From Patescibacteria group bacterium (GTDB lineage: Bacteria > Patescibacteriota > Patescibacteriia > 2-02-FULL-49-11), in NCBI GenBank assembly GCA_041645165.1, contig JBAZQN010000003.1, forward strand, positions 28,198 through 92,197: 64,000 nucleotides of DNA. The letters run 5' to 3'. Both the position numbers and the translations under genes were made by a program. Within the stretch, counting starts at the first letter, position 1, and every line of letters begins with the position of its first letter. Under the pieces are notes generated by a model. The model had not been told where the DNA came from, did no database searches, and saw only the letters and a program-made list of their open reading frames with translations. This document shows positions 11,120 through 64,000 of the stretch, piece after piece.

Positions 11120-11227
11120 AATATTTCATCCCTGTTAGAAGTCTTTCTTGTGATTTCTAACGGGGTTAATAAACAATATGACCATTTAGCCATGTATACT
11201 CGATTGCTATTCAAATTTCGATTGCAT

Positions 11228-11392
11228 CGTCGTTCCCGCCCCGTATCACGGTACGGGGTAAACCATGGCCTCGCGCAGGCGGGGCTCTTGCGGGAATCCA
11301 GACGCCGTCCTCGACCGAGATCGGGAAAAACCAAAAGAAAATCGATTTTTGCTTGTTTTTTATGTCTGGATTCCAAATCAGGTCTGGAATGA
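11228..11392. repeat. family-1 element, copy c (with nested extra hairpin module)
   Basis: gtcgttcccgcc[ccgtatcacggtacggggtaaaccatggcctcgcgcaggcgggg]ctcttgcgggaatc ... ctggattccaaatcaggtctggaatgac; same nested module as copy d. Confidence 0.6.
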
Positions 11393-11437
11393 CAATCGAA
11401 ATTGGGTTGGCAATTTATTATAACCATTACGCTATTT

Positions 11438-12073: not shown

Positions 12074-12098
12074 ATCCGAAATATAAAACTTATTAGGC

Positions 12099-14697: not shown

Positions 14698-14867
14698 AAT
14701 CTTTCTTCTTCCCTTCTCCTCCTAGTGGGCGGGGTTAATCTCAGAGTGAGGATTAGCCGTTGAAAAACCCTCCGCAGTCCCGCAGTGGCGGGACGAGGCG
14801 GAGTGCCCCGCCGCGCTGGAGGCGGGGACGCGTGTTTTTCCAACGGACAAGCCGAACGACTGTACGT

Positions 14868-16415: not shown

Positions 16416-16597
16416 ATTAAGTATCCACACTATAGCTCAGCATGATTTTTATGTCAAATTTCTTTCCCACTCCCCATAGTCATTGACAACTCTCTCTCTC
16501 TCTGCTTAACTGAACGTTAAAACTAATTCACAAATAGAGAGATTTTGTAATTCCTGCCCTTTGAAAACCTAGACGAAAAAATAGAGGAGAATTTGCC

Positions 16598-17707
16598 GTG
16601 GAAAATTTACACATCCAAACCGAAGGGTTTGCGGGATTCCTCATTCCTGCGATTGAAAAAATCATAAAAGTGGCATTCGATGTCCCGCTTTGCTGCACCA
16701 ACGCCGGAGAGAATTTAGATCAGGTCGTTGCCGAACTTATCGGCTCTAACCAAGTCCGGCAAGAAGGTGTACCCGTAACATCTGAGCTCCAACAAGGGGT
16801 TACCGAGATCGTGAAATATTACGTTGGCCTTCAACGTCCCATCCCCATTCTGACACCATGTGGAGGGAGAAAAACCATTTGTGGTCTCAGTATTGACGTG
16901 GCTGAACTTGTCGCGTTAAAAATGCTCATGTGTCTTCAACGGCGGGTACAGCAACATTATCCTCCAGGGTTGGAAATTCGTATACGAATTGAGGATATGG
17001 GCGCACTCCATCTCTTTAACCGAGATGATATCGCAACAAATCGACGCACGGTGAATGAGTATGCGAACGATTTCAGCTCATTAGTTCACATACTTGGGTT
17101 CGACTTATTACCGATACCGGAAAGCACTTTCATGGACGAGAAGCAGTACTCGGCTCTCGCCGACAGCTTCATCCCGCTATTGGAAGCTTATATCGTTGAG
17201 TCCGATGAGCACGGGCTTGATGCTTATGAGCGACTTCCCTGTTGGAAACAGTTGGCAGAAGTGGGGTGGACCGGTCCTATTCCGATTGAACAACGGGAAT
17301 ACTATCGTTCCCGTTACCGGGTACTCTATCCCGGCATTACGCCAGCCCAAGCAACGGAAATGCTGGCTCGTTATTTTGCCGGGTCGTTGGCAAGATACAA
17401 ACTGAACGGAACCTGCGTAGGTGACCTTGAAGGAAAATACATTCAAGTCACCTTCATGTGCCCGATTCCAGGTGTTCCTCCCGAAATGGTCTGGCGAAAT
17501 ATCTACTACCGCACGCTCCCGACCAAATTGGCGCGCACCCACATTCCCTTCTGGCGAGGAAAGGGGTACTTGCGAGTTCAGGGCGATACTGTTTGCCCAA
17601 AACTCGCGAGTTGGAGCGAACAGCTCAAATACAATCCCGCCTCAATTACTCTCTCCAACCAAAATTTAGCGGTAACCCTCGCCGCCGATTATGTAATCAT
17701 GCATTAA
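16598..17707 (+). CDS. hypothetical protein (369 aa), divergent from trp operon
   Basis: Long GTG-initiated ORF with good coding look, RBS-like aggag 8 bp upstream; no motif I can assign confidently. Confidence 0.6.
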   Translation: MENLHIQTEGFAGFLIPAIEKIIKVAFDVPLCCTNAGENLDQVVAELIGSNQVRQEGVPVTSELQQGVTEIVKYYVGLQRPIPILTPCGGRKTICGLSIDVAELVALKMLMCLQRRVQQHYPPGLEIRIRIEDMGALHLFNRDDIATNRRTVNEYANDFSSLVHILGFDLLPIPESTFMDEKQYSALADSFIPLLEAYIVESDEHGLDAYERLPCWKQLAEVGWTGPIPIEQREYYRSRYRVLYPGITPAQATEMLARYFAGSLARYKLNGTCVGDLEGKYIQVTFMCPIPGVPPEMVWRNIYYRTLPTKLARTHIPFWRGKGYLRVQGDTVCPKLASWSEQLKYNPASITLSNQNLAVTLAADYVIMH

Positions 17708-38443: not shown

Positions 38444-38627
38444 AAAACTATTTAAAGTTTCAACTAATTCCAGCCCTTATTTTAAGCCAAATTTTAATCA
38501 TTTTTTAACTAATTCGTCTCTCTTTTAACTAACTTCCAAACCGCAATTCCGATCTTTTCTTCTAATCCCTTAGCTAGGATAATGACCCGCCCAGAAACGG
38601 CCTTAAAATAGAGCCTAAATCGGCCTA

Positions 38628-40082
38628 TCATGTTTTATTATCAACCCCCCTTGAAAATAAACCCTTGGGCATCTCTTGCCCAGGCTTTCTATAGTAACGA
38701 TCCTTTTTTGCCTTACCAATTTTTTCTAGCAGTCCTTTTTCAACCCAGGCCTTCAAAATCCTAGACATTCTTAAGACATCGTGTACGCCGGTTGTTTCAC
38801 GGGCCTGTTTATTCGTAATGCGATAGTTTGCATCTAAATATTTACTGACGGTATCCCAATATTCAACTTTTTGCAGATTAAGAAGTATAAGCAACACCGA
38901 GTTCGGTTTTATTGTCGGCGGAAAGTATAACGGTTCGTATAGATTTTTCTCTTTCATCACTTTATACATACGATCAACGCCTTCTCCAATATCCAGGTTT
39001 GGAGCAACTTGAAAACGATTCAATGTTCTTAATATTAAAGGGTTTCTGGCGAATCTTTCTGACCGTATATTTTCAGTAGTGATGTGTCCCGGATAAGTCC
39101 CCGGACTTTCCACCTCAACACGATCGTCAAAGAATCTAACCTGTATATCGTTCTGGACAAAATAATTTCTATGAATAACTGCGTTCGTAATAGCTTCTTG
39201 AAATGCCCACTCGGGAATCATAAAAGTTGGTCTAAATGAGGCGCCGCTTAGTTTTGGTCGAGAACTTTTCGCCACACTCTTAAAATAGTCAACAGCTTTT
39301 TCTATCTGATGCAAGAGAGATCCTTCAAGAGTAAATGGCCGGTCTACAAAATTTGGCTCACCTGTATAATTTGGTTTGGTCCCATAATAGTGAGAAATTT
39401 TAATTCCGCATTTATTTTTCAACATAACCGATGGATTTTTACCGAACAATAAGACTCCGGCTGTGGTGAGCTCGTGCTTTCCAGCTTGATCAATCGAAAG
39501 TCCGTTATCTTTCAAAAACTGCCAGTCATTCAAGCTTTCACTTGCGGTATCCTTTTTATATTGCTTCAGTAAATTTTCATCCACGTCGTCGAGCGTAAAA
39601 ATGTCTGATTTCTCACTTTCAAATTTTATAGCGCCCTTCTCATACTTAAGACGCATTATTTCCGTAGAGCCGATTTTTACATTCTGCCTGCCTTTCCTTA
39701 CGAAAGTATCGCCGCGCTTGAGGGAATGCACATCATTGCTCTTTTTTACACTCACTACAAACAACTTGTCCGGCTGCCTATTCACATTGGTTATATCGAG
39801 TTCAAATTTTCCCCAAAGATTAAGCGGTGGTTCAATTTCTTTTTCAATGAGCTTCAAAAACTCTGAAATATTATCCAGGTTTTCACTGATTCCAAGTAGT
39901 CGTTTGTGGCCTTCTGCTTTTGACGGATCTTCAAGCCCAACGACAATGTAACCACCTTCCGTATTTGCAAAGGAAACAACCGTCTCTAAAAGTTTCGCCG
40001 GCTCAATAGCGGCTCGCTTACACTCAAAAGTCTGCCACTCCTGGGTATCTAGAAAAATCTTTATTATTTCTTGGTCATTCAT
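38628..40082 (-). CDS. AlbA_2 (Schlafen-like) DNA-binding + HATPase_c_4-type ATPase protein with C-terminal wHTH
   Basis: N-terminal divergent-AAA/AlbA_2 fold (…VSFANTEGGYIVVGLED…), central region often mis-annotated as RecG C-terminal domain, C-terminal HTH; start overlaps mod stop (ATGA). Confidence 0.65.
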   Translation of the reverse strand: MNDQEIIKIFLDTQEWQTFECKRAAIEPAKLLETVVSFANTEGGYIVVGLEDPSKAEGHKRLLGISENLDNISEFLKLIEKEIEPPLNLWGKFELDITNVNRQPDKLFVVSVKKSNDVHSLKRGDTFVRKGRQNVKIGSTEIMRLKYEKGAIKFESEKSDIFTLDDVDENLLKQYKKDTASESLNDWQFLKDNGLSIDQAGKHELTTAGVLLFGKNPSVMLKNKCGIKISHYYGTKPNYTGEPNFVDRPFTLEGSLLHQIEKAVDYFKSVAKSSRPKLSGASFRPTFMIPEWAFQEAITNAVIHRNYFVQNDIQVRFFDDRVEVESPGTYPGHITTENIRSERFARNPLILRTLNRFQVAPNLDIGEGVDRMYKVMKEKNLYEPLYFPPTIKPNSVLLILLNLQKVEYWDTVSKYLDANYRITNKQARETTGVHDVLRMSRILKAWVEKGLLEKIGKAKKDRYYRKPGQEMPKGLFSRGVDNKT

Positions 40083-42235
40083 ATATTCACCTCAATTATC
40101 TTCATCGTATCATTGCCGAAAATATCCACGACCTTGATTGCAAGCTTGTGCTTGCCCTTTCCAAGCTCGCGGGAAATAGATGTAAGTTCAAGCTCGCGCT
40201 TCTTCTTCGTACGGAAATCCTGCCACTCGTTTTCAAACACATAATCGCCAGTCCATACTTCTTCATATTCCAAGAGGTTCACCTGCGTTGGATTCGTTGA
40301 GCCGTCCAGTTTTATCTGCGTGGCTTCTTTTTTGGGTACGCGAACAACTTCTTTTTTGCTCTCAAAATTAAAATCAACCGCCCAATAATCAATCCAGTCC
40401 GTCCATTTTTTCGTGAGCGTCTCTCGCTCCACAATACCATCTTTGTCTTTGGATATTTTGATGATTTGGCCGTTTTCCACCACCAGCTTTTTACCCCCGG
40501 CTTTAAGATTTTCCTCAACTTCTTTGATTGAATCCTGATTATAAAATACTGAAAAATCAGTCAGCTCAACCGCTACCATTCCTTTTTTAACAATAGGTTT
40601 TACTTCAATATAGCTCACATCATGGAATACTACTTGATTCTTCTCAATCGCGCGCTTGTCAAACACATCGCGGGGAATGTATTTGAGCGCGAGATCAACG
40701 CCTTTGCCTTTGGCTTCTTCCTGAATGTTGGGAAATAATCCCATTTCAAACTCAAACGCCAAAACATCAACTTTGGTGATTTGCTTTTCAACTGCTTCTG
40801 TTATCACCGCGTCAACGAACAGCCGCGAGACCGGCATATTGATTGGCCCAATGGCAACGAGGCGAGAATTTTTCTTACCATGAAATGTTTTAAAGCCGTC
40901 AAAACTTTCGGCTTTGTATGCCGAAATAATAAGTGCAATAAAATCTTTTTCTTTTTGAGCGATTTGCTTTTGTTTCTCATCTTCGCGCAGGTTCGGATTG
41001 ATACCAACAAACATCTGGCGTTCGTATTTTCCGAGATTTAAAATTTCAAAGGCGCGAAAATCTTTTCCCGCTTTTGCCAGTTCACGCTGAACACCAATCA
41101 TTCGCTTGCGAGTTGTATGAATTGAGAATTTGCCTAAATCAGAACCAATCCACTTACGCCCGAGCTTTTCCGCAACAGCGAGCGTAGTACCCGAACCAGC
41201 AAAAAAATCCGCAACGAGATCGCCTTCGTTAGACGATGCTTTAACAATTCTCTCTAATAAATCTTCATGTTTTTGAGTAGGATAACCAACTTTTTTGTCC
41301 CCTCTTAACGCTGGCAATTCGATAAAATTATCGGCCTTGTTTTCCGTAACTTCAAAATAAACAATTTTGCCATTTTCGTCTCTTAGTCTTTGGGCTTTCC
41401 CCGTAACTGGATCCCAGACATGCTTGCTTGCGGTTCTAAATCCTTCTTCATTTTTAATTTTTTCGTAAACAATATTCCAGATATGCTCACCCTTGTTTTT
41501 TGCGTAATAAAATACCGTCTCGGTATTTTGATGAAATTTTTTCGACAAAGCTTTTAAACCTACTGCTGTGTAATGTATGACAATTTCATTTTGAAAATTA
41601 TTTTCATTGAATATCTCATCCAGTAATATTTTAATATACGGGCTTACTCTCCAATCGCAATGCACATAAATACTTCCATCTTCAGCAAGTAAACCGTGCA
41701 TAAGCGACAATCTCTCATATATCATCGCGATAAAACTATCCGCGCCCTTGCCCCATGTGTCACGATACGCTAATTCTTCCAGCACGCCGGGCTTTTTAGT
41801 AAATTCTTCTTCCCCGACTTCAATGTTCATTGAAAAATCCGCACCAACATCAAACGGCGGATCAATGTAAATCAATTTAATTCCACCTTGTTCTTGGATT
41901 TCTTGCCGAAGCGGACCATTTTTCAAACTGGAAAGGATTAATTTGTTGTCGCCCCAAATGAGCTTATTCGTCCATCCTTTGAGCTGGCGGCCGCGAGTGT
42001 CCACGTCAAACAGGGCCTGCTGGAGCTTGACCTCTTTTTCGCTTCTCGGCTCATCAACCTGCTCAATAACTTGAAATGGCAAAACGACATTCGTAACCTC
42101 ACTCGTTTTTCCATTCCAGACAAGCTCCACCTCCTGCTTATCCGCAAAAAGCAAAAAACGATATTTATCCGGCAACGGCTTATCGGCTTCCAAGTATTTG
42201 ATAATATCCCGTTTTTCGTTATCTGCTATTTTCAT
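40079..42235 (-). CDS. mod: Type III R-M DNA methyltransferase Mod subunit
   Basis: IYIDPPFDVGADF (DPPF motif IV) and DFFAGSGTTLAVAEKLGRKWIGSD (motif I FxGxG) in N6/N4-MTase beta-class order; 718 aa. Confidence 0.85.
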   Translation of the reverse strand: MKIADNEKRDIIKYLEADKPLPDKYRFLLFADKQEVELVWNGKTSEVTNVVLPFQVIEQVDEPRSEKEVKLQQALFDVDTRGRQLKGWTNKLIWGDNKLILSSLKNGPLRQEIQEQGGIKLIYIDPPFDVGADFSMNIEVGEEEFTKKPGVLEELAYRDTWGKGADSFIAMIYERLSLMHGLLAEDGSIYVHCDWRVSPYIKILLDEIFNENNFQNEIVIHYTAVGLKALSKKFHQNTETVFYYAKNKGEHIWNIVYEKIKNEEGFRTASKHVWDPVTGKAQRLRDENGKIVYFEVTENKADNFIELPALRGDKKVGYPTQKHEDLLERIVKASSNEGDLVADFFAGSGTTLAVAEKLGRKWIGSDLGKFSIHTTRKRMIGVQRELAKAGKDFRAFEILNLGKYERQMFVGINPNLREDEKQKQIAQKEKDFIALIISAYKAESFDGFKTFHGKKNSRLVAIGPINMPVSRLFVDAVITEAVEKQITKVDVLAFEFEMGLFPNIQEEAKGKGVDLALKYIPRDVFDKRAIEKNQVVFHDVSYIEVKPIVKKGMVAVELTDFSVFYNQDSIKEVEENLKAGGKKLVVENGQIIKISKDKDGIVERETLTKKWTDWIDYWAVDFNFESKKEVVRVPKKEATQIKLDGSTNPTQVNLLEYEEVWTGDYVFENEWQDFRTKKKRELELTSISRELGKGKHKLAIKVVDIFGNDTMKIIEVNI

Positions 42236-48207: not shown

Positions 48208-48258
48208 CAAGGGCGAGATTCGAATCCCAAACCAATCCGCCGCAATTTCTCTGGCTCC
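48205..48258. repeat. right copy of 54-bp direct repeat (putative attR), overlapping last 7 nt of tRNA-Asn
   Basis: ctccaagggcgagattcgaatcccaaaccaatccgccgcaatttctctggctcc. Confidence 0.6.
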
Positions 48259-48326
48259 GAGACCGGGATTCGAACCCGGAACCAACTGCTTAACAGGCAG
48301 CTGCTCTACCATTGAGCTATCTCGGA
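48252..48326 (-). tRNA. tRNA-Asn (anticodon GTT), CCA encoded
   Basis: Minus-strand TCCGAGA-TA-GCTC-AATGGTA-GAGC-A-GCTGC-CTGTTAA-GCAGT-TGGTT-CCGGG-TTCGAAT-CCCGG-TCTCGGA-G-CCA folds as cloverleaf with 7-bp acceptor, GTT anticodon. Confidence 0.85.
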
Positions 48327-52638: not shown

Positions 52639-54177
52639 TTATTCCCACTCGATCGTGCCCGGCGGTTTGCTGGTGAGATCATAAAGGACGCGGTTGACGC
52701 CCTCCACCTCATTGGTAATCCGCGTGGCGAGGCGTGCGAGCACGTCCTCGGGAATACGCGCCCAATCCGCGGTCATCGCATCCTCTGAGGTTACGGCGCG
52801 CACGACGATGGGATGCGCGTACGTACGCTCATCGCCCTGCACGCCCACAGAACGCACCTCCGGCAGAAACGCAGCATAATATTGCCACAATTTTAATTTT
52901 TTTGCGAGCGGGTCTAGCGTTTCGCGCACGATCGCGTCCGCCTGCGCGAGGGTCTTCAGGCGCCCTTCATCCACCGCGCCCACAATCCGCACGGCAAGGC
53001 CGGGACCGGGAAACGGCTGGCGCTCCACCACTGCGCGCGGGAGCCCCAAAATCCTTCCCACCTCCCTGACCTCATCTTTGAAGAGCATGCGCAGCGGTTC
53101 AATAAGTTTCAAATGCATGCGCGCAGGCAGCCCTCCCACGTTGTGGTGCGTTTTGATGGTGCTTGCCGTCCTGCCGCTTCCCGCCATTGCCGATTCGATC
53201 ACGTCAGGATAAAGCGTGCCTTGGACCAAAAAGGCGGGTTTTGATTTCAGCCGTTTTGCCTCTCTCTGGAACACTTCAATAAAAGTCCGTCCTATGATCT
53301 TCCTCTTCTCCTCTGGATCGCTTACCCCTTTTAATTTATGCAAAAATAATTGCGGCACGCGCACCACCTTCAAATCCGCCTTCAGCATGCGCCGCATCGC
53401 CTGCGCCACTTCTTGTTCCTCGCCCAAGCGAAGCAGGCCGTGGTTCACGAACACCGCAATAAGCCGGTGGCCGAGGGCATGGTGCACGAGCGTGGTGGCC
53501 ACCGCCGAGTCCACGCCGCCGGAAAGCGCGGCGATCGCGTATCCCTTGCCCGCCTTTGCTTTAATTTCCTCTATGGCTGACGTCACGAACGACGGCATAG
53601 ACCAATCCGGCGTGAGGCCTGCAATACGGACCAGAAAATTCTCAAGCATTTTTTTTCCAAACTGCGTATGCACGACTTCCGGATGGAATTGCACGCCCCA
53701 TATATTCTTTTCCTTATCCCCCACGAGGGCAAATGGGGAATGTGCAGTCACGCCATATGCGTGAGTGCCTTTGGGGAGCCGCACGACGGCATCGCCATGG
53801 GACATCCATACTCTCAATTGCTGAGGGAGACCGGCAGTGAATGGCGATCCGCGGACAATCTTTACGCTCGCGGGGCCGTATTCTCTCTGCTTCATCCTTA
53901 CCACTTTCCCTCCGGTGAGATAACACGTCAGCTGCTGGCCATAACATATCCCTAAAATGGGAATGCCCAGCGCAAACAATTCTTTCGGCACGCGCGGCGC
54001 TCCCTCTGTATATACTGATGAAGGCCCTCCGGAAAGAATAATCGCGTGTGCCTGCTTGAGCCTCTCAAGCGGCGAGCGATAAGACACCAGCTCCGCGGAA
54101 AATCCCAACTCGCGCACCCTACGGGCGATCAACTGGCTGTACTGCGCGCCAAAATCAATGACAAAAACTTGGGACAT
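52639..54177 (-). CDS. guaA: GMP synthase (glutamine-hydrolysing)
   Basis: N-terminal GATase (…GICYGQQL…) + ATP-PPase SGGVDSAV P-loop + C-terminal dimerisation domain ending …PGTIEWE. Confidence 0.9.
   Translation of the reverse strand: MSQVFVIDFGAQYSQLIARRVRELGFSAELVSYRSPLERLKQAHAIILSGGPSSVYTEGAPRVPKELFALGIPILGICYGQQLTCYLTGGKVVRMKQREYGPASVKIVRGSPFTAGLPQQLRVWMSHGDAVVRLPKGTHAYGVTAHSPFALVGDKEKNIWGVQFHPEVVHTQFGKKMLENFLVRIAGLTPDWSMPSFVTSAIEEIKAKAGKGYAIAALSGGVDSAVATTLVHHALGHRLIAVFVNHGLLRLGEEQEVAQAMRRMLKADLKVVRVPQLFLHKLKGVSDPEEKRKIIGRTFIEVFQREAKRLKSKPAFLVQGTLYPDVIESAMAGSGRTASTIKTHHNVGGLPARMHLKLIEPLRMLFKDEVREVGRILGLPRAVVERQPFPGPGLAVRIVGAVDEGRLKTLAQADAIVRETLDPLAKKLKLWQYYAAFLPEVRSVGVQGDERTYAHPIVVRAVTSEDAMTADWARIPEDVLARLATRITNEVEGVNRVLYDLTSKPPGTIEWE
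54133..54177. repeat. 45-bp direct repeat copy 1 (= authentic 5' end of guaA)
   Basis: ctggctgtactgcgcgccaaaatcaatgacaaaaacttgggacat identical to 55449-55493. Confidence 0.7.
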
Positions 54178-54208
54178 AATGCTTAAAATGAGAATAGTGA
54201 ATTATTAA

Positions 54209-55411
54209 TCAGGGGTGCATCACGCCTTTATTAAGAAATGAGAGTATTTCATCAGCCGCCTTTCGGTAACCGCCGCTCGTTAAAAAAGATTGCCTTATTT
54301 TCTCAGCTGAACTCACATATGCTCCCTCATGTAACACCTTTTTTGCGGCCATCGCTAATATCTGTGGAGTTACCGCAGAACGATCAATCATGATACCCGC
54401 CCCAAGTCGCTCTACGCGGCGCGCATTTAATTCCTGCTCCAGAGTCGAAGGAATCATGACAAGAGGCGTCTGGTAATACATGCCTTCGCTCACACTATTC
54501 AATCCGCCATGGGTTATAAAGAGTTTCGCTCTTTTAAGAATCGCTTTTTGGTCAACAAACGTTTCGACTTGAAAATGAGAGGGCAGATGAGTGAAATGTG
54601 TCTGCGTAAGGCGCCCGCCCAGAGACAGTATGACATGATAATCCATGCCTTTGAATGCCTCAAAACATATTTCAAAAAAATTATCTAACCGATCAAATAA
54701 GGTGCCGAGAGAAATATAAATAATATTTTCCTTTGCCTCTCTGTTGCCTTCCTCCTGTTCCTCATCGATAGATGCCCCGATAAATTTGTATTCCTCGCCA
54801 AAGAATCGCTCAAAGGGTTGGAAATAACGCGAAGTATACACGATATTCAGCTTTTCCCTATTGTATATAATATCCTTAAATATGCTTTTGCGTACCCCAA
54901 AAGTCTTGCATAAACGGCGCGCAACATTTATATATTTCCCGAATTGGGACGCGCCTTTGAGGGTAAACTTCCAAAGATAAGGCGTTCTTAAGGTCATCCG
55001 TCCGTTCATCAAACCAATGGGGACGGAGCAAATGGCGGGGGTATTTGTCTTGAGGGCAGCTATTTTCCCTCCTAACACCATTGCATCATGAATGAGAAAA
55101 TCCGGCTTCGTCTTTTCAATATCCTCAATACCTGAAGTGATGAATTTCTCCGTATATTCTAATATCGCAAGCCAAAAATCGGTGAGTCCGCGACTCCTCA
55201 AACACTGAACCAGCTTGTCTTCGAGCGCCGAATAAAAATCATTTCCGTAGGGATAGCGTTTAAACGCTATACCATGTCCTTCTATAACCTTCCTAAATTT
55301 ATCTGTGGAGTAATATATCATTTCTACCCCTCTCCTCGTCAGCTCACGGCAGACAGGCAGGGTTGGCAAAGTATGTCCCCAAACTGGTAAACTAAAAAAT
55401 AATCCTCTCAT
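54209..55411 (-). CDS. GT1-family UDP-glycosyltransferase (MGT/macrolide-glycosyltransferase-like)
   Basis: MRGLFFSLPVWGHTLP N-terminus and C-terminal …ITHGGLNSVSEGMYYQTPLVMIPSTLEQELNARRVE donor-binding motif; start at internal Met (track ORF extends to 55522 through duplicated guaA fragment). Confidence 0.8.
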   Translation of the reverse strand: MRGLFFSLPVWGHTLPTLPVCRELTRRGVEMIYYSTDKFRKVIEGHGIAFKRYPYGNDFYSALEDKLVQCLRSRGLTDFWLAILEYTEKFITSGIEDIEKTKPDFLIHDAMVLGGKIAALKTNTPAICSVPIGLMNGRMTLRTPYLWKFTLKGASQFGKYINVARRLCKTFGVRKSIFKDIIYNREKLNIVYTSRYFQPFERFFGEEYKFIGASIDEEQEEGNREAKENIIYISLGTLFDRLDNFFEICFEAFKGMDYHVILSLGGRLTQTHFTHLPSHFQVETFVDQKAILKRAKLFITHGGLNSVSEGMYYQTPLVMIPSTLEQELNARRVERLGAGIMIDRSAVTPQILAMAAKKVLHEGAYVSSAEKIRQSFLTSGGYRKAADEILSFLNKGVMHP

Positions 55412-55448
55412 GTATTTTATGCGACTGATCGAAAAAATATAATCCAAG

Positions 55449-55493
55449 CTGGCTGTACTGCGCGCCAAAATCAATGACAAAAACTTGGGACAT
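55449..55493. repeat. 45-bp direct repeat copy 2 (duplicate of guaA start incl. ATG)
   Basis: Same 45 bp; creates a 33-codon uORF MSQVFVIDFGAQYSQLGLYFFDQSHKIHERIIF overlapping the GT start. Confidence 0.7.
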
Positions 55494-55534
55494 GGGAAAA
55501 TAATGAAAAACTCAAAATGCATAATGGTTCGACA

Positions 55535-55645
55535 GGCTCACCATGACATTTCTGTCACCCTGAGCTTATCGAAGGGTCACGCCGAAGGCTCACCATAACA
55601 ACCACTTTCTTGTCATCCTGAGCCCGACGAAGGATGATTTTTGAA
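55535..55645. repeat. two tandem degenerate palindromic units (family related to family 1)
   Basis: ggctcaccatgacatttctgtcaccctgagcttatcgaagggtcac / ggctcaccataacaaccactttcttgtcatcctgagcccgacgaaggatgat. Confidence 0.5.
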
Positions 55646-56659
55646 TCACGATCTTATAAAGCTCGCCTCGAACCCGTTCTCACTGCACTTGGTCAGTTCG
55701 CTTGCGGTGAAAATTTTATTTTTCTTAAGCAATTCATACTCCTGCTTTAGGTTGGTCCCGTGCATTTCAGGGCCGTCCGTGTTGATCGTGAGACGCACGT
55801 GGTGCTCTAAAAGAGTCCGGAAAATGCGGCGCATCTCTTCCACGCTCTTGATGACGCCCACATTCAGGTTGGAGGTGGGGCAGAGCTCAAGGGTAATATT
55901 TTTTTCTGCAACCATATGCATCAATCCCGTGTCCTGCCATGCGAGAAATCCATGCCCGATCCGGTGGGGGGCGATATGTTCCACAATATATTTCATCTCT
56001 TTCACAGATCCTTCCTCGCCCGTATGGATAGTGGCTCCGAAACCAAGATCTTTTGCTTCCTGAAACAAGCTCTCGTATTCCTCAATATGGAACGCAGGGC
56101 TCTGCGGCCCTGCAAGGTCAATGCCCACGATCCCCCGATGCTGGTATTTCTTTGCTTTTTCAAAAATGATGGTATTCAGCTTCTTGGGGTATTCCCGGTC
56201 AAGCATCAGGATTAATCCCGCGCGCACCGAAGGGTATTCAAAGAGCGCATTTTCCATTCCGCGGATTGCTGCAAGAATAATGTAATCAAGATCGCGCTCT
56301 CCGCCGCGATTGCGCTTCATGGGATTGAACCGGAGCTCGTGCACGACGACGTTATTCGCGCGGTACGCGCCTCCTATGGTGCCGTGCACTGCCGGCTCGA
56401 TCGCCAAAGGGGATGATTGGATGAGCTCGGTCCAGTGATATAATTGCCGATCAACCTCCAAAAAGCGATGAAACTTTCCTTTCTCCTTAATAGTGACCAT
56501 CCGTTCGAACTCCCAATAATCCTTCGTCGGCAATTTGATCCCCTGTTCGTGCGCCAAGGTCCACAAGATTGCGGCGTCCACGGCGCCGCCGAGATGAGAG
56601 TGAAGCTCGGTTAGAGGAGGACCGGCGGGATGATTAGTAATTGAAGACTCACTTTTCAT
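55646..56659 (-). CDS. add: adenosine/adenine deaminase-family metallohydrolase
   Basis: LHSHLGG…HTGEEGS…TINTDGPEMHG metal-ligand motifs of adenosine deaminase superfamily. Confidence 0.8.
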   Translation of the reverse strand: MKSESSITNHPAGPPLTELHSHLGGAVDAAILWTLAHEQGIKLPTKDYWEFERMVTIKEKGKFHRFLEVDRQLYHWTELIQSSPLAIEPAVHGTIGGAYRANNVVVHELRFNPMKRNRGGERDLDYIILAAIRGMENALFEYPSVRAGLILMLDREYPKKLNTIIFEKAKKYQHRGIVGIDLAGPQSPAFHIEEYESLFQEAKDLGFGATIHTGEEGSVKEMKYIVEHIAPHRIGHGFLAWQDTGLMHMVAEKNITLELCPTSNLNVGVIKSVEEMRRIFRTLLEHHVRLTINTDGPEMHGTNLKQEYELLKKNKIFTASELTKCSENGFEASFIRS

Positions 56660-56769
56660 AGCCTTACACTTATGATGAGTAAAAATATTTTACACGCTGA
56701 AGTTCAAAATCTCACCGCTTCAGCGGGATCCCGCATACTTTAGATAAATTAGTTCAATGTGCGGGACAA

Positions 56770-56867
56770 AACTCAAATGCCAAATTAAATTCAAAATCAC
56801 AACGCCAAAACTTTGACATTTAGGCTTTGACATTTATTTGAACTTTGAAATTTGTCATTTGAACTTA
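56770..56867. repeat. AT-rich TTGACA-containing tandem repeats
   Basis: aaaactttgacatttaggctttgacatttatttgaactttgaaatttgtcatttgaac between guaB stop and add start. Confidence 0.45.
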
Positions 56868-57941
56868 TCAATAATTTGGCGCATGCTTCGTAATAAATAC
56901 TGAATGCGGGTGGCTCTCTCTCATGCCTGCATCGGTGATGCGGATAAAGTGAGCTTTCCTCTGGAGCTCGGGAATGTTGCGCGCGCCCACATATCCCATC
57001 CCGCTTCTTAATCCTCCCACAAGCTGGGTAATTATGTCCGAAAGCGGCCCCTTGAGAGGCACCGCGCCTTCCACCCCTTCGGGTACGTATTTTTTTGACC
57101 CTTTTTGGAAATATCGATCAGCGCTTTGCCCCACGTTCATGGCTCCCAAACTTCCCATACCGCGATAGGTTTTGTACGCCACGCCTTCGATGATCACTTT
57201 TTTCCCCGGCGCTTCATCCGTACCGGCAAACAGGCTCCCCAGCATGACAGCGGACGCGCCCGCGGCAAGCGCTTTCACAATATCGCCGGAGTGCCGGATG
57301 CCCCCGTCCGCGATCACGGGAATCCCTTTTTGTTTCGCGACCCGCGCCACTTCCATGATCGCGGTCAATTGCGGCACGCCTACACCAGCGACGATCCGCG
57401 TCGTGCAAATGGAACCAGGCCCTACACCCACCTTGAAGCCGTCGGCCACGCCTAAAAATGCGCGCGCCGCTTCTGCGGTTGCCATATTGCCCACAATGAG
57501 CTTTGCCTTTATTTTTTTCTTTAATGCTTTGGCAGCGGCAACGGAAGATGGCTTGTGGATATGCGCGGAATCAAATACTATCACGTCCACGCCCGCCTTA
57601 TCAAGCGCAAGGGCCCTCTCTCTATCGCCTGGCCCTACGGCAGCGGCAACCTTATTTTTGATTTTTGATTTTTGATTTTTGATTTCGTGAATCATCTTTA
57701 CCTGCTCTTCCACGGTGCAATTGCGATGCAATACCCCCATCCCCCCCGCTTCACCTAAGGCTGCGGCGAAACGGGCGTCGGTCACGGTGTCCATTGCCGC
57801 AGAGAGCAAAGGAAGGATAAGCGGCAATCCTTTGGCCGCATATGACGAAATATCAGCCTCGCGCGGGCTGATGGCAGATTCTTGCGGAATCAGGAGAACA
57901 TCGTCAAAAGTAAGACCAAACGGAGTCTTTGAGGTTTCCAT
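56868..57941 (-). CDS. guaB: IMP dehydrogenase lacking the CBS subdomain
   Basis: [11 protein letters not shown]…SAAMDTVT…GPGSICTTR…[20 protein letters not shown]…YVPEGVEG; CBS pair replaced by short [10 protein letters not shown] linker; 357 aa. Confidence 0.8.
57655..57682. repeat. (TTTTTGA)x4 heptanucleotide tandem repeat inside guaB
   Basis: tttttgatttttgatttttgatttttga encoding [10 protein letters not shown] on minus strand. Confidence 0.8.
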
Positions 57942-58048: not shown

Positions 58049-60484
58049 TTACTCCTTCGGTTTAAGTTTCGCAAGATGCTTTTGGAGTATCGCCTGCATG
58101 GCTTCAGGGAATTCGTTCACGCTCTTCGGAATAATGCTGTCTTTACCGAAATGGTACTGCACCATCCCCGCCACCTCTGGTTCAGGCGTGATCGCCGTCC
58201 CTTCGAGAGGAGTAAACTTACGCGCTTCATCGGCCGCTTGCTTAGTCGACGCTTCCTGCGTGGTGCTATCGGTAATAAATATCATCAAAGATCCAATCCG
58301 ATCGACTTCTGCGCGTTTTCTCTGCAATATCTTCTTTAATCGCGGCACCGCCACTTCTATAGCCTCAGCATCCCGATTATCCCCGCCGAATCCTGACTTT
58401 TGACTATCCAACATCATGACGATGCGTGACTTGACCCTCCCATCGTATGGCTCATTGGCTGCCTTGATAATATACCTTTCATCGTGAGTTAAATTCTTAT
58501 CGTCGCTCGCCAGGATCTCAATATAGACATTATAGTCTTTTGCCGCTTCGCATGTTGCAATGCATGACTTAACCGCGTTCACGATGCGTTGTTGATCATT
58601 ACTATACATCGATCCGCTCACGTCAACAAGAATTTGCAACACCATTGCCGTTTCCTCAGGCGTTTCCCGGCGCCCCATGGGTTTCTCGGTGCCGGTGCCG
58701 ATGCGCTGAACGTACCGTCTCACGTCAAAACGGATTCCTCTTCTGCTCCATTCGTATTCCAGTTCATCCACCTTTGGGACAAATCTTTTAAAGATTCGCT
58801 TGAGTCTCTGGGTCGCGGAATTTACTTCGAGCCGGAGTTCATTGTATTTTTCGCGCAGGACGGGATCGTTAAAGTTATCTCTGCTTTTTTGTAACTCATG
58901 TTTTTCTTGCTCCCGCTCCGCTTGTGTTTCTTTATTTTGCTCTGCACGCTCTTTTGCTTCTCTAGCCCTCTGCTCCAGCCGCTGGTTATGCTGTTCAATC
59001 ATCTTCTTCAGAATCTTTTGGAAATGTATAGGCCAGGAAGATGGATCGTGAGGGTCGAGATTGGGATCTTCTTCGGGCTTGGTGCCGCCTTCGGAAGGTT
59101 GGCCTCTCTTGCCTTGTTGCTGTTGCTTACCGCCTTTCGCTTGACCTTGCTCTGATGGTTTACCTTCCTGCTCTCCACTCTCATCTTGATCTCTCCGATC
59201 TTGTTCACCTTCTCCGCCAGTCTTACTTGTATCATCTTTGCTACCTTGAGCACTAGCACCATCTTTCTCATCGGGAAATCCATTCCCATCTTTCGATTCA
59301 TCAGCACTTTGTGATCCTTCTTTCGATTCATCGCCTCCATCTTGTGCAGTATCTTTTTCATCACCACTATCTTTGCCGCTTCCTTGATCGTCTTTACCAT
59401 CATCTTTTTTACCATCGCTTCGATCTGCTTCCTCATCTTCTCCATTAGCTTCTTTACCACTTTGCTTACTCCGTTGATCCACGCCTTCCGTACTCTGAGA
59501 TTGATCCTCTCCCGGCTCGCCGTCCTCTCCTTCACCATCGCCTCCTCCTGACCCTTGTTGTTTCTGCTCTCTACTCTTATCAGGAAATTCATCAATGAGC
59601 CTTTTGAGCGCAGGCCAAATATGCTCAACAATGAGCTTCTCTATCTCGGGGTTTACCTTCATCGCTGGTTTTACTGCGTCACCAGTAATTTGAGCGACAA
59701 TTTGTTCAATTTTTAGATACTCCTCCCTTACCCGCGGATGGAGGTCGTCTAGACCCCACGGCTTCTCGACTCCTTTTACTTCTTTTTCATGCAACGCCCA
59801 AAGTCGCTCTAGCTTGATCATGAATTTGAACTGATCGGTGGGAGACATCTTCGCCACTCCACCCGCTTCTCCGTCAATGTTTTCCATCTCTTTACCGTGT
59901 ATCCCTTCAACGATATCGGGGATGATCATCTTGCTATTTTTTTCAAATAACTGCAAACGAGCATTCTCATGAAGAGGTCCCCCAACGAGGCGCTCCATGC
60001 GAGGATCTTCAAGACAATTGTTTAGTTCGAGAATCTCCTGCGGATCGTACCCTTCCTGCCGCGCGAGCGACTCGAATCGTTTCAAGCGGCCGTAGTCAGT
60101 CCATTCCGTATGACCTTTTTCATGGCGAATCTCTCCCAATAAAAAGTTAAGGGGAGCATCGCCGGCGATGAATCCAAACGGCGCGCCAATGATGTATTGC
60201 TTGCGTACCGGATCGTCGACGATCTCGCCTTCCAAGGTCACTCTCTTGGCAGGTACTTGAGCGCAGAAAAAGGTGTCGAGTTCGGGATCGGTGTAAATCT
60301 CGATTGCACGGTCTGGCGACTGGGAAGCGTGCTCAAGCGTGGCGAGGACATACGCCATGCGTTCAGGATTCGGCCGCGCGGCATTCTCTTGAAGCCGCTG
60401 CATGAAAGCTTGGTAACCCTCAATCATCGGGTGCTTCCCTGTCTCTGCGGGTTTATAAAAATCAAAATCTTCGTGCTTAATCAT
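58049..60484 (-). CDS. HExxH metallopeptidase-like / acidic low-complexity / C-terminal VWA-domain protein (CobT/DUF2201-like architecture)
   Basis: IRHEKGHTEWTDY HExxH; ~150-aa D/E/G/K/S-rich spacer; C-terminal VLQILVDVSGSMYS MIDAS-like DxSGS motif. Confidence 0.55.
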   Translation of the reverse strand: MIKHEDFDFYKPAETGKHPMIEGYQAFMQRLQENAARPNPERMAYVLATLEHASQSPDRAIEIYTDPELDTFFCAQVPAKRVTLEGEIVDDPVRKQYIIGAPFGFIAGDAPLNFLLGEIRHEKGHTEWTDYGRLKRFESLARQEGYDPQEILELNNCLEDPRMERLVGGPLHENARLQLFEKNSKMIIPDIVEGIHGKEMENIDGEAGGVAKMSPTDQFKFMIKLERLWALHEKEVKGVEKPWGLDDLHPRVREEYLKIEQIVAQITGDAVKPAMKVNPEIEKLIVEHIWPALKRLIDEFPDKSREQKQQGSGGGDGEGEDGEPGEDQSQSTEGVDQRSKQSGKEANGEDEEADRSDGKKDDGKDDQGSGKDSGDEKDTAQDGGDESKEGSQSADESKDGNGFPDEKDGASAQGSKDDTSKTGGEGEQDRRDQDESGEQEGKPSEQGQAKGGKQQQQGKRGQPSEGGTKPEEDPNLDPHDPSSWPIHFQKILKKMIEQHNQRLEQRAREAKERAEQNKETQAEREQEKHELQKSRDNFNDPVLREKYNELRLEVNSATQRLKRIFKRFVPKVDELEYEWSRRGIRFDVRRYVQRIGTGTEKPMGRRETPEETAMVLQILVDVSGSMYSNDQQRIVNAVKSCIATCEAAKDYNVYIEILASDDKNLTHDERYIIKAANEPYDGRVKSRIVMMLDSQKSGFGGDNRDAEAIEVAVPRLKKILQRKRAEVDRIGSLMIFITDSTTQEASTKQAADEARKFTPLEGTAITPEPEVAGMVQYHFGKDSIIPKSVNEFPEAMQAILQKHLAKLKPKE

Positions 60485-60486
60485 AC

Positions 60487-61467
60487 TTAATCATTACGAT
60501 GTTTTTGCCTCCACTGCGGTTTATATTGATCAATGATCAGATCGACAGATTGTGGAACATCTAACCTAAAAGTAAATTGTGCCAAGATTTTCGCTGTCTC
60601 CATGTCAACCGCTTGAAGGCCGTTAAGCATTATCTTGTTTTCATGTTTGACCAACTCTTTCGCTATATCAGAATCAAGAGCGGTCAAACCATTCAATTCA
60701 AGTGGGCCTCGAACCCTCGCAAGCGCCTTTGCAGTAGCAACTGAAAGCGTAGTAAGATTATTCAATTTGAGCCAATCAGTAGTATAGGCAGGTGACGGAT
60801 AGCTTGGAGGGACGAAAAGGCAATCCGCTACTTCCGACGATATTTCTTTTATGCCTAAAGTCTTAGATGGAATCTTCGCTAAACATGTTGCAACCTTAGG
60901 AGTAAGCGACTTCATTCCATTCAAGGAAATGGAGACGCTACTCTTACCTAATATTTCTGCTATTTCGACTGGAAGATTGTTTAATCCATCCAATTCTATA
61001 CGGAGACGGCGAACAGATGATAATTCCTGAGCCGTTTTATACGATATCGACTTAAGGCTGTTTAACCACACCGTAATGCCTTCAATGGGGCTGTTTGCTT
61101 GTTTGATTAAAATGATTCGTCTCAGGATATTAGGAGGACAAAATGTTAATCTGTAGGTATTATCAACGTTGCCGTCTTCAATCTCGTGCCAAATCTTAAC
61201 ATCTTCCTCGATCAAAGACGAGAGATTATCTATTAAACACTCCTCGCCTTCAACATCAATGGTGAGTCCATTGATTGATTCCTCAAGATTATGAACTTGC
61301 CCCACGGTAACCGGCCTGTCATTCTCAACAGTGGCCACGAGTTCTTTTGCGTGATTCACTACATCGTCCAATTCCGGTGTTCTCGCAATTTCCAGATTCA
61401 AGTATACCGATTGCTCACTTTCACGATCCAGCTTTACTTCAAACATGTTTTCACTTTTCTCAGACAT
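60487..61467 (-). CDS. RI-type leucine-rich-repeat protein (paralog 1)
   Basis: Repeats IELDGLNNLPVEIAEILGK / LELNGLTALDSDIAKELVKH / IMLNGLQAVDMETAKILAQF resemble ribonuclease-inhibitor-type LRR (LxLxxNxLxxxgAxxLaxaL). Confidence 0.55.
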   Translation of the reverse strand: MSEKSENMFEVKLDRESEQSVYLNLEIARTPELDDVVNHAKELVATVENDRPVTVGQVHNLEESINGLTIDVEGEECLIDNLSSLIEEDVKIWHEIEDGNVDNTYRLTFCPPNILRRIILIKQANSPIEGITVWLNSLKSISYKTAQELSSVRRLRIELDGLNNLPVEIAEILGKSSVSISLNGMKSLTPKVATCLAKIPSKTLGIKEISSEVADCLFVPPSYPSPAYTTDWLKLNNLTTLSVATAKALARVRGPLELNGLTALDSDIAKELVKHENKIMLNGLQAVDMETAKILAQFTFRLDVPQSVDLIIDQYKPQWRQKHRND

Positions 61468-61486
61468 AATGGAGTTGAATGCATGT

Positions 61487-62569
61487 TTACGATTTTCCGA
61501 CTGCTGCCTTCTCGGATTTTTCTTTATACGCACAAATCCTTCTATCTACATCCACTGAGAATCCATATTTTTGTACCTTCTCCCACGGAGCGCTTGCCAA
61601 AATCGGTATCGCTTCGGGAGATACTTTCACGCAAATCAAGTCAAAAACACCAGGATTATCGAATGATATCAATTCCTTTGCCGCTGCGGGAGAAAGCTCA
61701 AAATCAAGATTGCTAAAATTTATAGATCGATCTGCCAACTTCCATTTTCCTTTGAATGCCCGTATAACCTCTGGGGTAGGTTCGAGTTGCTCAAAATAAT
61801 ATTTCCCATGATTTTTCGCCAACTCCTCAAGCGCCCCCGATTCAAAAGACTGCAGACCATGTAATGAAAATTTGTCATGCGAAGAAGCCCCTCTTCGCCC
61901 AAAAGCTTCTGCAGCCTCGACCGTAATTGATGTAATGCCATGTAAATCTATTTCACTGCCATACCTGGTCGTTAACAACGCACGCGCTATCTCTGGTGAT
62001 AATTCAGAAAGCCCATTCAATTCGACCTGGCGGCCAGTTTGACTGAGCGCCTGCGCAGTCTCTGGAGAAACATGATGGATATTGTTAAAATTAAGCCTTA
62101 CTCCATGAGCGTCAGCTAATGCTTTTGCTGTCCCTGATGAGAGCCATCGTAAGCTCTTGAAATTCCATGTTTTAATATCGTCAAAATGGTGTTCCTTAGT
62201 ATACTCAGCCAATATCCGCGCATACCTCTCGGGCAACATGGTGAGCGCTTGTATTGATTCGCGGTTAAGCACACGACCGTAATTCTTCGAAAAATCCTCC
62301 ATGGCTTCCCAAATCGGATGATTTCTCTCAATTTCGTCCTTTAGATCAGCAATCGGCACTCCTTCGATAGTTAGCTGTCCGATGGAATCATTGAGAGTCT
62401 GGAATTCGCCAGCAGCTATTGGCTGATCCTTCAACATTACTTCCTTCAAGGTCGTCAAATTTTTTAGTACTGAACCCAATGCAACATCGGGGGCAATTTC
62501 CAAGGAAGTGACTGATTTGGTCTCATGCATCTCCACTGCATCGTACACTTGTTCATTTAGCTCCGACAT
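61487..62569 (-). CDS. RI-type leucine-rich-repeat protein (paralog 2)
   Basis: VELNGLSELSPEIARALLTT / IDLHGITSITVEAAEAFG / FSLHGLQSFESGALEELAKN repeats. Confidence 0.55.
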   Translation of the reverse strand: MSELNEQVYDAVEMHETKSVTSLEIAPDVALGSVLKNLTTLKEVMLKDQPIAAGEFQTLNDSIGQLTIEGVPIADLKDEIERNHPIWEAMEDFSKNYGRVLNRESIQALTMLPERYARILAEYTKEHHFDDIKTWNFKSLRWLSSGTAKALADAHGVRLNFNNIHHVSPETAQALSQTGRQVELNGLSELSPEIARALLTTRYGSEIDLHGITSITVEAAEAFGRRGASSHDKFSLHGLQSFESGALEELAKNHGKYYFEQLEPTPEVIRAFKGKWKLADRSINFSNLDFELSPAAAKELISFDNPGVFDLICVKVSPEAIPILASAPWEKVQKYGFSVDVDRRICAYKEKSEKAAVGKS

Positions 62570-62738
62570 AGTACAAGAACTTAATTTATTGTGCCTCCCC
62601 CGACACCGCCTCAACTTTCGCTTCGTTGAATGAGCTTGACCGAAGAAGAGAATCCTCACGCTCGTGAGGATGCACTTCCTGATGTGATATTTCGTTCACT
62701 TCTAGCATAATTTATTCGCTCGAAACTTTGTCTCATCC

Positions 62739-63554
62739 CTAGCCAAAGTGACAAAAGCGCTGGTGTTCCGGAACGCTTGTTAAAATTTGTTTCACCTCAT
62801 CGTTGAGCTGCGAGAATAATGTTTCTGGAAAATAGACCCCTCCATGCCGATCATGAGGTTGTGATACGAACTCCATCGCCGCTTCCGCAGAGATATCAGT
62901 CACCCCGAAGAGTCTCACGCCAGTCGTGCTTTTCGTGAGTGCTCTTGCCAACTCAGGTGAAATACTTGTCAAACCATTCAGAAAAATTACTCCCCTGTTG
63001 CGCTTGACCAGGATTTCTACGACTTCAGGCTTTATTGAAGTGATGCTGTCGAGTTTAATGGCGCCTTCATGAAAGTGAAAAGCAGACGCTGCTCCCTCAT
63101 CCAAAGAAGTAAGGCCGGACAGATCAATGTCCTCGCTATACATACCATGATTATCGTTGAGGTAGAAAACTGTACTACGGTCAATAAAAGTCAACTTTTT
63201 CGAGAGTTTATCAACTTCAAATCCACCCGATCTTAACGCTCCGTCCTGTTTAATCTTTTGTTTGAACATTTGCAACGTCTGGACAGTATCCTTGAACCCC
63301 TTAATCTTTAGCAATTCACTAAAGGTCGCTCCCTGCCCGTCTCCTCTATCCAAGAGTAGTAAAGATACCAGATGCTCTAGCCTTGCCATTTGTCCTTCCG
63401 TCACGGCCTGATTAGTATCTACTCGCGCGGCTAAACCTTGAATATGAGAAAGTGCCTCCTGGAAATGGGGCGTCTGCATTATTTCCACCCGCGCCAGCTC
63501 TTCGGTCTCACGTTCATGAGGACTCGATTCTTCTATTGTGTTCAAGTGCTCCAT
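62739..63554 (-). CDS. RI-type leucine-rich-repeat protein (paralog 3)
   Basis: IDLSGLTSLDEGAASAFHF / IFLNGLTSISPELARALTKS / VRLFGVTDISAEAAMEFV repeats. Confidence 0.55.
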   Translation of the reverse strand: MEHLNTIEESSPHERETEELARVEIMQTPHFQEALSHIQGLAARVDTNQAVTEGQMARLEHLVSLLLLDRGDGQGATFSELLKIKGFKDTVQTLQMFKQKIKQDGALRSGGFEVDKLSKKLTFIDRSTVFYLNDNHGMYSEDIDLSGLTSLDEGAASAFHFHEGAIKLDSITSIKPEVVEILVKRNRGVIFLNGLTSISPELARALTKSTTGVRLFGVTDISAEAAMEFVSQPHDRHGGVYFPETLFSQLNDEVKQILTSVPEHQRFCHFG

Positions 63555-63576: not shown

Positions 63577-64000
63577 TTACTTAGACGGTGCTACAAGCGT
63601 ATCGTCAATGAGTTGTTCAAGAGATATGAGTACCGTATCGAGTCCTTCGATCGGATTTTTTCGGTAATCATCCATCACTCGCAGCCATGCGATGCGCACA
63701 TCCCGGGTTTTCCTATACTCACGTACCACCGCAATCGTGTCGCGCCGGCTGACGCCGATGAGATCGAATCGCTGGCGTTTCTCATAACCCTTCCGCCAGC
63801 TGTCCGCAATGCGCAGAATATCCCGCAGATCGATCAATATTTTTTTGATATGTTCAGCGGAGGGAGGCGTTTCAATGAGCTTCTTTAATTTAGGATTCGT
63901 TTCGATCTCGGTGATTCTCGACCCTTGAGTATCTTCATTCACGAAATAGTCCCACAGGAGGGCAAATTCCTGATCGTTAATGCCGGTGAATTCATTCAGT
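63577..64000 (-). CDS. hypothetical protein, N-terminus beyond window
   Basis: Reading frame stays open to the window edge (…LNEFTGINDQEFALLWDYFVNEDTQGS…). Confidence 0.4.
   Translation of the reverse strand, partial: LNEFTGINDQEFALLWDYFVNEDTQGSRITEIETNPKLKKLIETPPSAEHIKKILIDLRDILRIADSWRKGYEKRQRFDLIGVSRRDTIAVVREYRKTRDVRIAWLRVMDDYRKNPIEGLDTVLISLEQLIDDTLVAPSK

Follow-up and report, generated by a model that had tools for sequence, protein, structure and literature searches.

MoxR-class AAA+ ATPases such as CbbQ and NorQ work through an adaptor carrying a von Willebrand factor A (vWA) domain with a metal ion-dependent adhesion site (MIDAS)—CbbO and NorD, respectively—on a defined client, Rubisco in the one case and NOR in the other. 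In addition, "ternary" conflict systems have been proposed, in which MoxR and vWA proteins are joined by a variable component (Kaur et al. 2020, PMC7159879), and, as antigen sensors for them, lectin proteins have been put forward that bear an uncharacterised extension at the N-terminus and are diversified by diversity-generating retroelements (DGRs; Dore et al. 2024, PMC10907252). Finally, the WD40 proteins Rsa4 and Ytm1 carry, in their N-terminal domain, a conserved Glu that the MIDAS domain of Rea1/Midasin binds (PMC6624252). Here, we compare with these systems an operon of a Patescibacteria group bacterium of the Peribacteria type, situated at the end of a 64-kb stretch of contig JBAZQN010000003.1 (hereafter the window, meaning the whole stretch of DNA that was analysed). 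Three of its genes, P1, P2, and P3, all within 60487–63554 on the minus strand, encode leucine-rich repeat (LRR) proteins, and we consider it very likely that these function together with the ATPase/vWA pair encoded on either side of them. We regard the system as a variant of those MoxR–vWA-centred systems in which the sensor or adaptor proteins vary; the repeat class itself is already known, and the LRRs of P1–P3 are a new member of it.

The operon runs, on the minus strand throughout, from an AAA_5 (MoxR-class) ATPase via P3, P2, and P1 to a protein with an HExxH motif and a vWA domain, with gaps of 2–22 nt at its ends (2 nt between the P1 stop and the start codon of the HExxH–vWA gene). The window contains the 3′ end of the ATPase gene, that is, its last ~140 codons (63577–64000; 197 bits on this fragment with our own AAA5 hidden Markov model [HMM]), and the remainder was read from L001, an identical, independently assembled contig (L001:1081–3003). 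The HExxH–vWA partner, a protein of 811 aa, is encoded at 58049–60484. An earlier note on this DNA had given the open reading frames (ORFs) of the three LRR genes—60487–61533, 61487–62659, and 62739–63554—with the right positions and strand; two of its lengths, 348 and 390 aa, however, result from GTG starts far upstream. With the probable ATG starts at 61467 and 62569, P1 measures 326 aa (60487–61467) and P2 360 aa (61487–62569), while the 271 aa of P3 (62739–63554) stand, and these lengths agree with the NCBI annotation (MFA4872672.1, MFA4872673.1, and, for P3, MFA4872675.1; each a "hypothetical protein"). Also in line with that note, the three are tandem paralogs from end to end: the alignment of P1 with P2 starts at residue 1 and covers 299 residues (74 bits, 25% identity), and that of P1 with P3 spans 228 residues.

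To describe the repeats, we used a unit HMM that was seeded and iterated solely on relatives outside the window (73 units; consensus LNGLTSLSDEAAEYLSKHQG). It scored 56.2 bits on P1 (6 units; maximum of 1000 shuffles, 6.7 bits), 28.3 bits on P2 (4 units; 6.2 bits), and 30.9 bits on P3 (4 units; 9.1 bits), about 6.5 to 12 standard deviations above the respective shuffle means, and the top lag in an ungapped BLOSUM autocorrelation was 23–24 in each of the three proteins. These scores, together with the autocorrelation peak, show that the repeats are no compositional artefact, and the 4 to 6 copies of a ~24-aa unit claimed in the earlier note are borne out, the unit measuring 23–24 and at times 25–27 residues. 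AlphaFold models of P1 (predicted local distance difference test [pLDDT] 83, predicted template modelling score 0.73) and P2 (pLDDT 68) contain ~8 units each, with a strand of 3–5 residues followed by a helix of 7–9, and form a curved solenoid with a parallel beta-sheet on its concave face. The predicted solenoid comprises residues ~105–300 of P1 (60568–61155) and ~103–330 of P2 (61580–62263), and the LRR region of P3 corresponds to residues ~118–250 (62805–63203).

Profile searches gave a two-sided picture. No Pfam, NCBIfam, or PADLOC model matched P1–P3 at E ≤ 10, and the LRR profiles by which the earlier note had proposed to check its assignment failed to respond, since the Pfam LRR models left all 25 family members tested without a match at E ≤ 0.1. 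The reverse search was positive: against all PDB sequences, the profile of the 25-member family matched LRRC15 (1.1e-10), FBXL2 as second best (1.4e-8), and LRRTM (3.3e-8), and also variable lymphocyte receptors, LGR4, and repebodies. An exhaustive profile search returned 3541 representative proteins at E ≤ 1e-3, of which 1947 reached E ≤ 1e-10. Nearly all were matched in the repeat part only and inside large multidomain proteins (e.g., Ser/Thr kinase or FGE-sulfatase fusions); this 24-residue LRR variant is thus common, yet missed by Pfam. The suggestion that the repeats are artefactual, or that P1–P3 are functionless, decaying pseudogenes, may draw on the missing database matches and the "hypothetical protein" annotation. 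It is refuted, and we give it next to no credence, given the distance of the unit scores from their shuffles, the 1947 proteins matched at the stricter threshold, the confident solenoid models, the conserved synteny described below, and the reading frames themselves, which are intact and encode identical proteins on the independently assembled contig L001. Judged by periodicity, profile, and predicted fold, P1–P3 belong to the LRR superfamily, with an atypical Leu in the ladder.

The N-termini, by contrast with the claim that the first ~100 aa differ among the three proteins, are conserved. P1–P3 and ATPase-adjacent genes of other genomes align in a common N-terminal region of ~95 aa, which we call HEAD (consensus pE.p.eN.iaD...glEis..pEl......L..L..aI.hD.pit.e.l..Lreal.gl.v.igGe..tl.e...ipdlk.N.kIw.eI..Gn). 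A HEAD HMM scores 70–103 bits on the N-termini of P1–P3 (90 bits on P3), and the best-kept polar positions, N7, D11, E25, and D49, are retained in 70–87% of sequences (84–87% for the acidic D11, E25, and D49); by sequence comparison, the N-terminus is the most family-specific and conserved part of the family. The P1 model begins with a disordered acidic tail of 20 residues, and residues 21–100 are confidently predicted (pLDDT 75–93), in the order strand–helix–helix–hairpin–helix and with no beta-grasp. The HEAD extends over residues ~21–100 of P1 (61168–61467 with the tail, residues 1–20, counted in), ~1–95 of P2 (62285–62569), and ~1–100 of P3 (63255–63554). An HMM trained on LRR-type members alone also gives 60 bits on two proteins whose C-termini are unrelated, which makes HEAD an independent module. 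Within the window, the models of HEAD and of the 24-residue LRR unit (LRR24) match P1–P3 only. The literature searched holds no description of either the HEAD domain or the operon, and the present finding defines HEAD as a new N-terminal domain.

The 169-nt gap between P3 and P2 contains a 40-aa ORF (62586–62708, minus strand; MLEVNEISHQEVHPHEREDSLL...KVEAVSGEAQ), and the NCBI locus tags miss one number at this place (WC659_01930). By eye, the ORF resembles a HEAD N-terminus; the HEAD HMM gave no match, and we discarded this assignment. Inside the same ORF lies a hairpin followed by a T-run (62671–62652, minus strand). The gap could hold a terminator or an attenuator separating P3 from P2; alternatively, it could hold the relic of a lost paralog. 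A scan for promoters and terminators returned counts no higher than chance.

The ATPase/vWA pair resembles CbbQO and NorQD in both of its members. The ATPase (640 aa; Pfam AAA_5, 5.9e-13) has CbbQ/NorQ structures as its closest solved relatives (profile matches at 1.9e-11 and 6.3e-11), and its partner likewise ends in a vWA domain (~58115–58642) with an intact, invariant DxSxS MIDAS motif (DVSGS, 58610–58624; D621, S623, S625); among partner homologs, Pfam finds VWA_2 in five of six (best 6.8e-5) and VWA in four of six. There are differences as well: the ATPase is longer by ~300 residues at its N-terminus and by ~150 at its C-terminus, an N-terminal domain of the partner contains an invariant HExxH (HEKGH, 60110–60124; H121, E122, H125) and an EDPRMER motif, and the associated genes encode variable repeat proteins, not Rubisco or NOR. 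The window's partner also contains a low-complexity insert of ~170 aa rich in D, E, G, K, and Q (~59060–59572), which is much shorter in all five aligned homologs, and a coiled region. Spurious ORFs overlap the insert both in a different frame and on the complementary strand (e.g., 59008–59631). We dismissed a sequence link to Midasin, the MIDAS domain of which was the sole PDB match of the partner profile at a non-significant E of 0.056, and likewise a phage origin, as the viral contigs of IMG/VR contain no relative of the vWA partner.

The ATPase is identical to a protein that NCBI lists for the metagenome-assembled genome (MAG) of a Patescibacteria group bacterium. Its relatives at 52–58% identity come from MAGs of Candidatus Peribacteria/Peribacteraceae, and in a scan covering each GTDB species with one genome, close relatives turned up only in seven such MAGs from the candidate phyla radiation (CPR). 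Between the same genomes, the ATPase and the vWA protein are ~55% identical, whereas a HEAD–LRR paralog shares only 25–33% identity with any other copy, whether in its own genome or in another one. We take the P1–P3 family to be Peribacteria-restricted, and it is fast-evolving.

We compiled a census of related loci, which were fetched via the ATPase or the vWA protein and scanned with our own HMMs. HEAD genes, one to eight per locus, lie between or beside the ATPase–vWA pair in 22 of ~29 distinct related loci. Wherever the contig allows, the AAA5 and HExxH–vWA genes share one cluster, either directly adjacent or parted by a few genes, most of which encode HEAD proteins; the flanking genes, in turn, vary from locus to locus. 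The one HEAD protein that was found independently of the pair, with enough sequence context, adjoins the vWA gene. In total, the census comprises 60 distinct HEAD proteins, 40 of which have at least two LRR24 units; in the remainder, we found HEAT-like repeats of 29 aa (GLAGLDSExAWxMRxKLL), a repeat of 23 aa that resembles LRRs, or globular domains. Both copy number and C-terminal domain thus vary behind a conserved HEAD. A word-indexed homolog search retrieved only P2 itself and one pure-repeat protein when queried with P2, and two fragments when queried with the HEAD alignment.

The largest array (L022:2134–8567 and 10863–12789) consists of eight tandem genes with a divergent HEAD, in which the C-terminus alternates between the 29-aa helical repeats (with an 87-nt period in the DNA) and a globular domain ending in GVRPARSFF.

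In a further locus, L005, HEAD genes are targets of a textbook DGR beside the ATPase/vWA operon. Two HEAD genes there, both encoding lectin-like C-termini, have DGR variable repeats as their 3′ ends, and a third copy of 122 nt, the template repeat, is located upstream of an RVT_1 reverse transcriptase (DGR parts at L005:11070–11846, 14702–15490, 15824–15945, and 16422–17402). All mismatches between variable and template repeats fall on adenines of the template, in AAC codons. Locus L024 displays the same three-copy pattern (111–237, 575–701, and 4897–5023), again at the 3′ end of a HEAD gene. This targeting implies that, in at least some HEAD proteins, the C-terminal module is under selection for variable ligand binding.

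With a conserved HEAD inside a conserved ATPase/vWA operon, P1–P3 look like interchangeable ligand-binding adaptors or sensors and not like secreted effectors. That they are HEAD-docked adaptors or sensors of a single MoxR–vWA hub is a proposal whose chances we judge to be evenly balanced. Each protein combines an N-terminal motif in a disordered acidic tail, an alpha/beta HEAD of ~80 aa, and a variable C-terminal module as the putative ligand binder—in P1–P3 an LRR arc of 4–8 CC/GALA-like units of 24 residues—and would be co-transcribed with the CbbQ/NorQ-like ATPase and the partner composed of HExxH domain, acidic linker, and vWA (MIDAS) domain. The HEAD or the N-tail would dock each paralog on the vWA/MIDAS partner or on the ATPase, the concave LRR face would bind a different protein ligand in each paralog, and the MoxR ring, driven by ATP, would remodel the bound complex, possibly together with the metallopeptidase-like HExxH domain. 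The array would then amount to a repertoire of interchangeable adaptors or sensors serving one ATPase/vWA hub, with a role most likely in conflict, be it the sensing of invaders or the recognition of a host or prey by an episymbiont.

The main rival reverses the direction of service: HEAD proteins could be the substrates, and the MoxR–vWA pair a dedicated chaperone or maturase that folds, metal-loads, HExxH-processes, or assembles the LRR proteins into a larger structure, for instance one for surface display or attachment. An ATPase core most similar to the CbbQ/NorQ maturases and the intact MIDAS motif of the partner fit this picture, as does the conserved motif in the disordered N-tail, which would suit recognition by an AAA+ pore or a processing peptidase, and gene linkage as such cannot separate a client from an adaptor. 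A dedicated chaperone for one to eight clients whose folds at the C-terminus are unrelated (LRR, HEAT-like, lectin-like, globular) would be unusual, however; LRR solenoids normally need no maturases, and DGR hypermutation of the C-terminal ends suggests that ligand recognition is the function selected in the variable part. On balance, we consider the client scenario unlikely, though it deserves more attention than any other alternative.

How does the proposed adaptor operon relate to the ternary systems? As in these, a MoxR-class AAA+ ATPase and an adjacent vWA protein are accompanied by a variable third component, copy number and domain content differ between loci, and DGR-diversified lectin-like proteins occur near the MoxR gene in some of them. 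The ternary systems are arranged in the fixed order VMAP–MoxR–vWA and found in multicellular bacteria, whereas the order in P1–P3-type loci is not fixed, HEAD genes taking variable positions, and the operon belongs to the CPR. Moreover, judging by Pfam and PADLOC matches, the operon has no VMAP/VMAP-C, iSTAND, FtsH, or recognised vWA-fused effector domains; instead, its vWA protein bears the N-terminal HExxH domain, and its third component is a HEAD array, mostly with LRRs. Given that a VMAP-like third component is missing, the operon is not one of the described ternary systems.

Rea1/Midasin offers a different parallel, in that it likewise brings together ATPase modules of the AAA_5 type, a linker rich in D/E, and a MIDAS domain, and its ligands likewise place an N-terminal docking domain of ~90 aa before a repeat domain (WD40 in the Rea1 ligands, LRR here). 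L007, a more distant relative of the operon, even carries WD40 genes at the equivalent position: four tandem, highly similar genes (260, 388, 388, and 388 aa; L007:4840–9365) directly downstream of the ATPase, whose products have a common N-terminal region of ~90 aa. This region could not be demonstrated to be a HEAD (HEAD HMM E > 3; hhalign probability 24%). In the operon described here, each component is a polypeptide of its own, and only one AAA module is present in the ATPase.

Several observations weigh against the proposal that P1–P3 are docked adaptors. The N-terminal domain of the Rea1 ligands is ubiquitin-like and HEAD is predicted to fold otherwise, so the Rea1 analogy is architectural only and, strictly, the model suggests that P1–P3 are not Rea1-type ligands. 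The Mg-binding Walker B Asp is replaced by Asn in the window's ATPase (VYVNE in place of the family's hhIDE, residue ~379 of the gene at L001:1081–3003), which might lower its activity; this change is present in 2 of 20 aligned ATPases (the window's and 1 of 19 others), and the protein keeps the catalytic Glu, the Walker A motif (GEAGVGKT), and the arginine. The HExxH domain has no Pfam match, either in the partner or in its homologs, and its peptidase activity is putative. No PADLOC model matches any component of the operon, and no PADLOC or Pfam match pointed to a VMAP-C protein or a vWA-fused effector domain, a search with a VMAP-C model itself not having been made. The loci were mostly retrieved via the ATPase or the vWA protein, and the reverse association, from HEAD protein to pair, rests on the one independent case mentioned above. 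More generally, the LRR proteins could be clients instead of adaptors, and everything beyond gene linkage is deduced from sequence, predicted structure, and neighbourhood.

The class of the repeats bears on a further alternative. The earlier note had assigned them to the ribonuclease inhibitor (RI) class, the repeats of which measure 28–29 residues; with units of 23–24 residues, RI class proper is ruled out. Read from the sequence, the unit is x-L-x-L-N-G-L-T-x-L-S-x-E-x-A-x-x-L-x-x-x-x-G-x, with apolar positions at +3, +6, +7, +11, and +14 after the strand L-x-L, which fits the 26-residue pattern of the cysteine-containing (CC) LRRs. Short strand–turn–helix units and an apolar spacing as in the CC consensus are common to CC-LRR/GALA proteins (Skp2/FBXL, Ralstonia GALA/RipG, Legionella LegL1) and the present family. 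Position 9 of the ladder (LxxLxLxxN/CxL), usually Asn, Cys, or Thr in CC, GALA, and typical LRRs, is Leu in P1–P3 and their relatives, the conserved Asn of the unit sitting one position past the strand, and the I-T-D motif that follows the strand in the CC 26-mer is L-T/S here. In GALA and GALA-like 24-mers, each of the two loops is shorter by a residue (Kajava et al. 2008, PMC2244805), whereas the P1–P3 units miss both residues, relative to the CC 26-mer, from the helix-to-strand loop. P1–P3 further differ in having no F-box and in escaping every Pfam LRR model. By sequence, then, the repeats are best described as a CC/GALA-like 24-residue variant, with CC/GALA as the nearest class and a deviating consensus.

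In comparisons with solved structures, the top matches were CC/GALA proteins, the closest including Legionella LegL1 and LegL7, the LRR/coiled-coil protein 4q62, and Ralstonia RipG4; LRRs of NLRs scored ~11–12, ribonuclease inhibitor 11.2 and 10.8, and RanGAP 10.9 and 10.0. This company, effector LRRs of Legionella and Ralstonia, could be taken to mean that P1–P3 are secreted, eukaryote-like LRR effectors that manipulate host proteins and diversified after tandem duplication, and so could the fast evolution and variable copy number of the family and the inference that Peribacteria are symbionts (PMC4736985). The earlier note had gone in this direction, with effectors of amoeba-associated and other intracellular bacteria in mind. 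A check for secretion signals, however, revealed neither a signal peptide nor a transmembrane segment in P1–P3: the maximum Kyte–Doolittle hydropathy over 19 residues is 1.0–1.4 and the net charge of the first 30 aa is −3 to −6, measures that bear on classical export. The bacterium is a CPR member and no amoeba symbiont, the genes are tightly set, in many genomes, between a cytoplasmic-type AAA+ ATPase and its vWA protein, and no secretion-system genes were among the called genes or Pfam annotations of neighbours in the inspected loci. With the CPR lineage, the lack of a hydrophobic segment, and the acidic N-termini, the amoeba-effector picture is unsupported, and we hold secretion as effectors to be quite improbable; eukaryote-like LRRs in a bacterial genome are, on their own, no sign of secreted effectors.

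One neighbour might still be cited in favour of effectors. On L001, 180 nt upstream of the ATPase, there is a gene for a patatin-like phospholipase (L001:77–901; Pfam 9.3e-21, matches at 2e-10 to PADLOC models of phospholipase effectors). The gene tables of L002–L007 do not list it, and hence it probably stands outside the system.

The genomes of CPR bacteria are tiny, and a life on other cells is presumed for these organisms. Against this background, we raise, tentatively and as a prospect we would not bet on, that the operon encodes an undescribed immune-like or host-recognition system of Peribacteria, in which separately encoded receptors would be HEAD-docked on a MoxR/vWA–metallopeptidase hub. 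If so, most of the receptors would be LRR arcs encoded in the germline and some would be lectin domains hypermutated by a DGR, a repertoire functionally comparable to LRR-based innate sensors. Arrays of as many as eight tandem genes that diverge fast and are tied to one ATPase/vWA pair, some of them hypermutated by a retroelement, point to a strongly selected function that lacks any annotation, and the arrangement offers a testable architecture for directing MoxR–vWA machines to many targets.

Elsewhere in the window, the operon is followed, at 52639–57941 (minus strand), by purine-salvage genes encoding a short protein of the IMPDH/GMP-reductase family (357 aa), adenosine deaminase, and GMP synthase, and this region also includes genes for a glycosyltransferase and the DnaG primase. 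A low-GC island at 35759–42235 (minus strand; GC content 0.40–0.44 vs ~0.50) likely represents a restriction-modification or defence cluster, with genes for a ResIII helicase-like protein (894 aa), a Schlafen protein with AlbA_2 and HATPase_c_4 domains (484 aa), and an N6_N4 DNA methylase (718 aa). The sole tRNA of the window, a tRNA-Asn, is located at 48252–48326.

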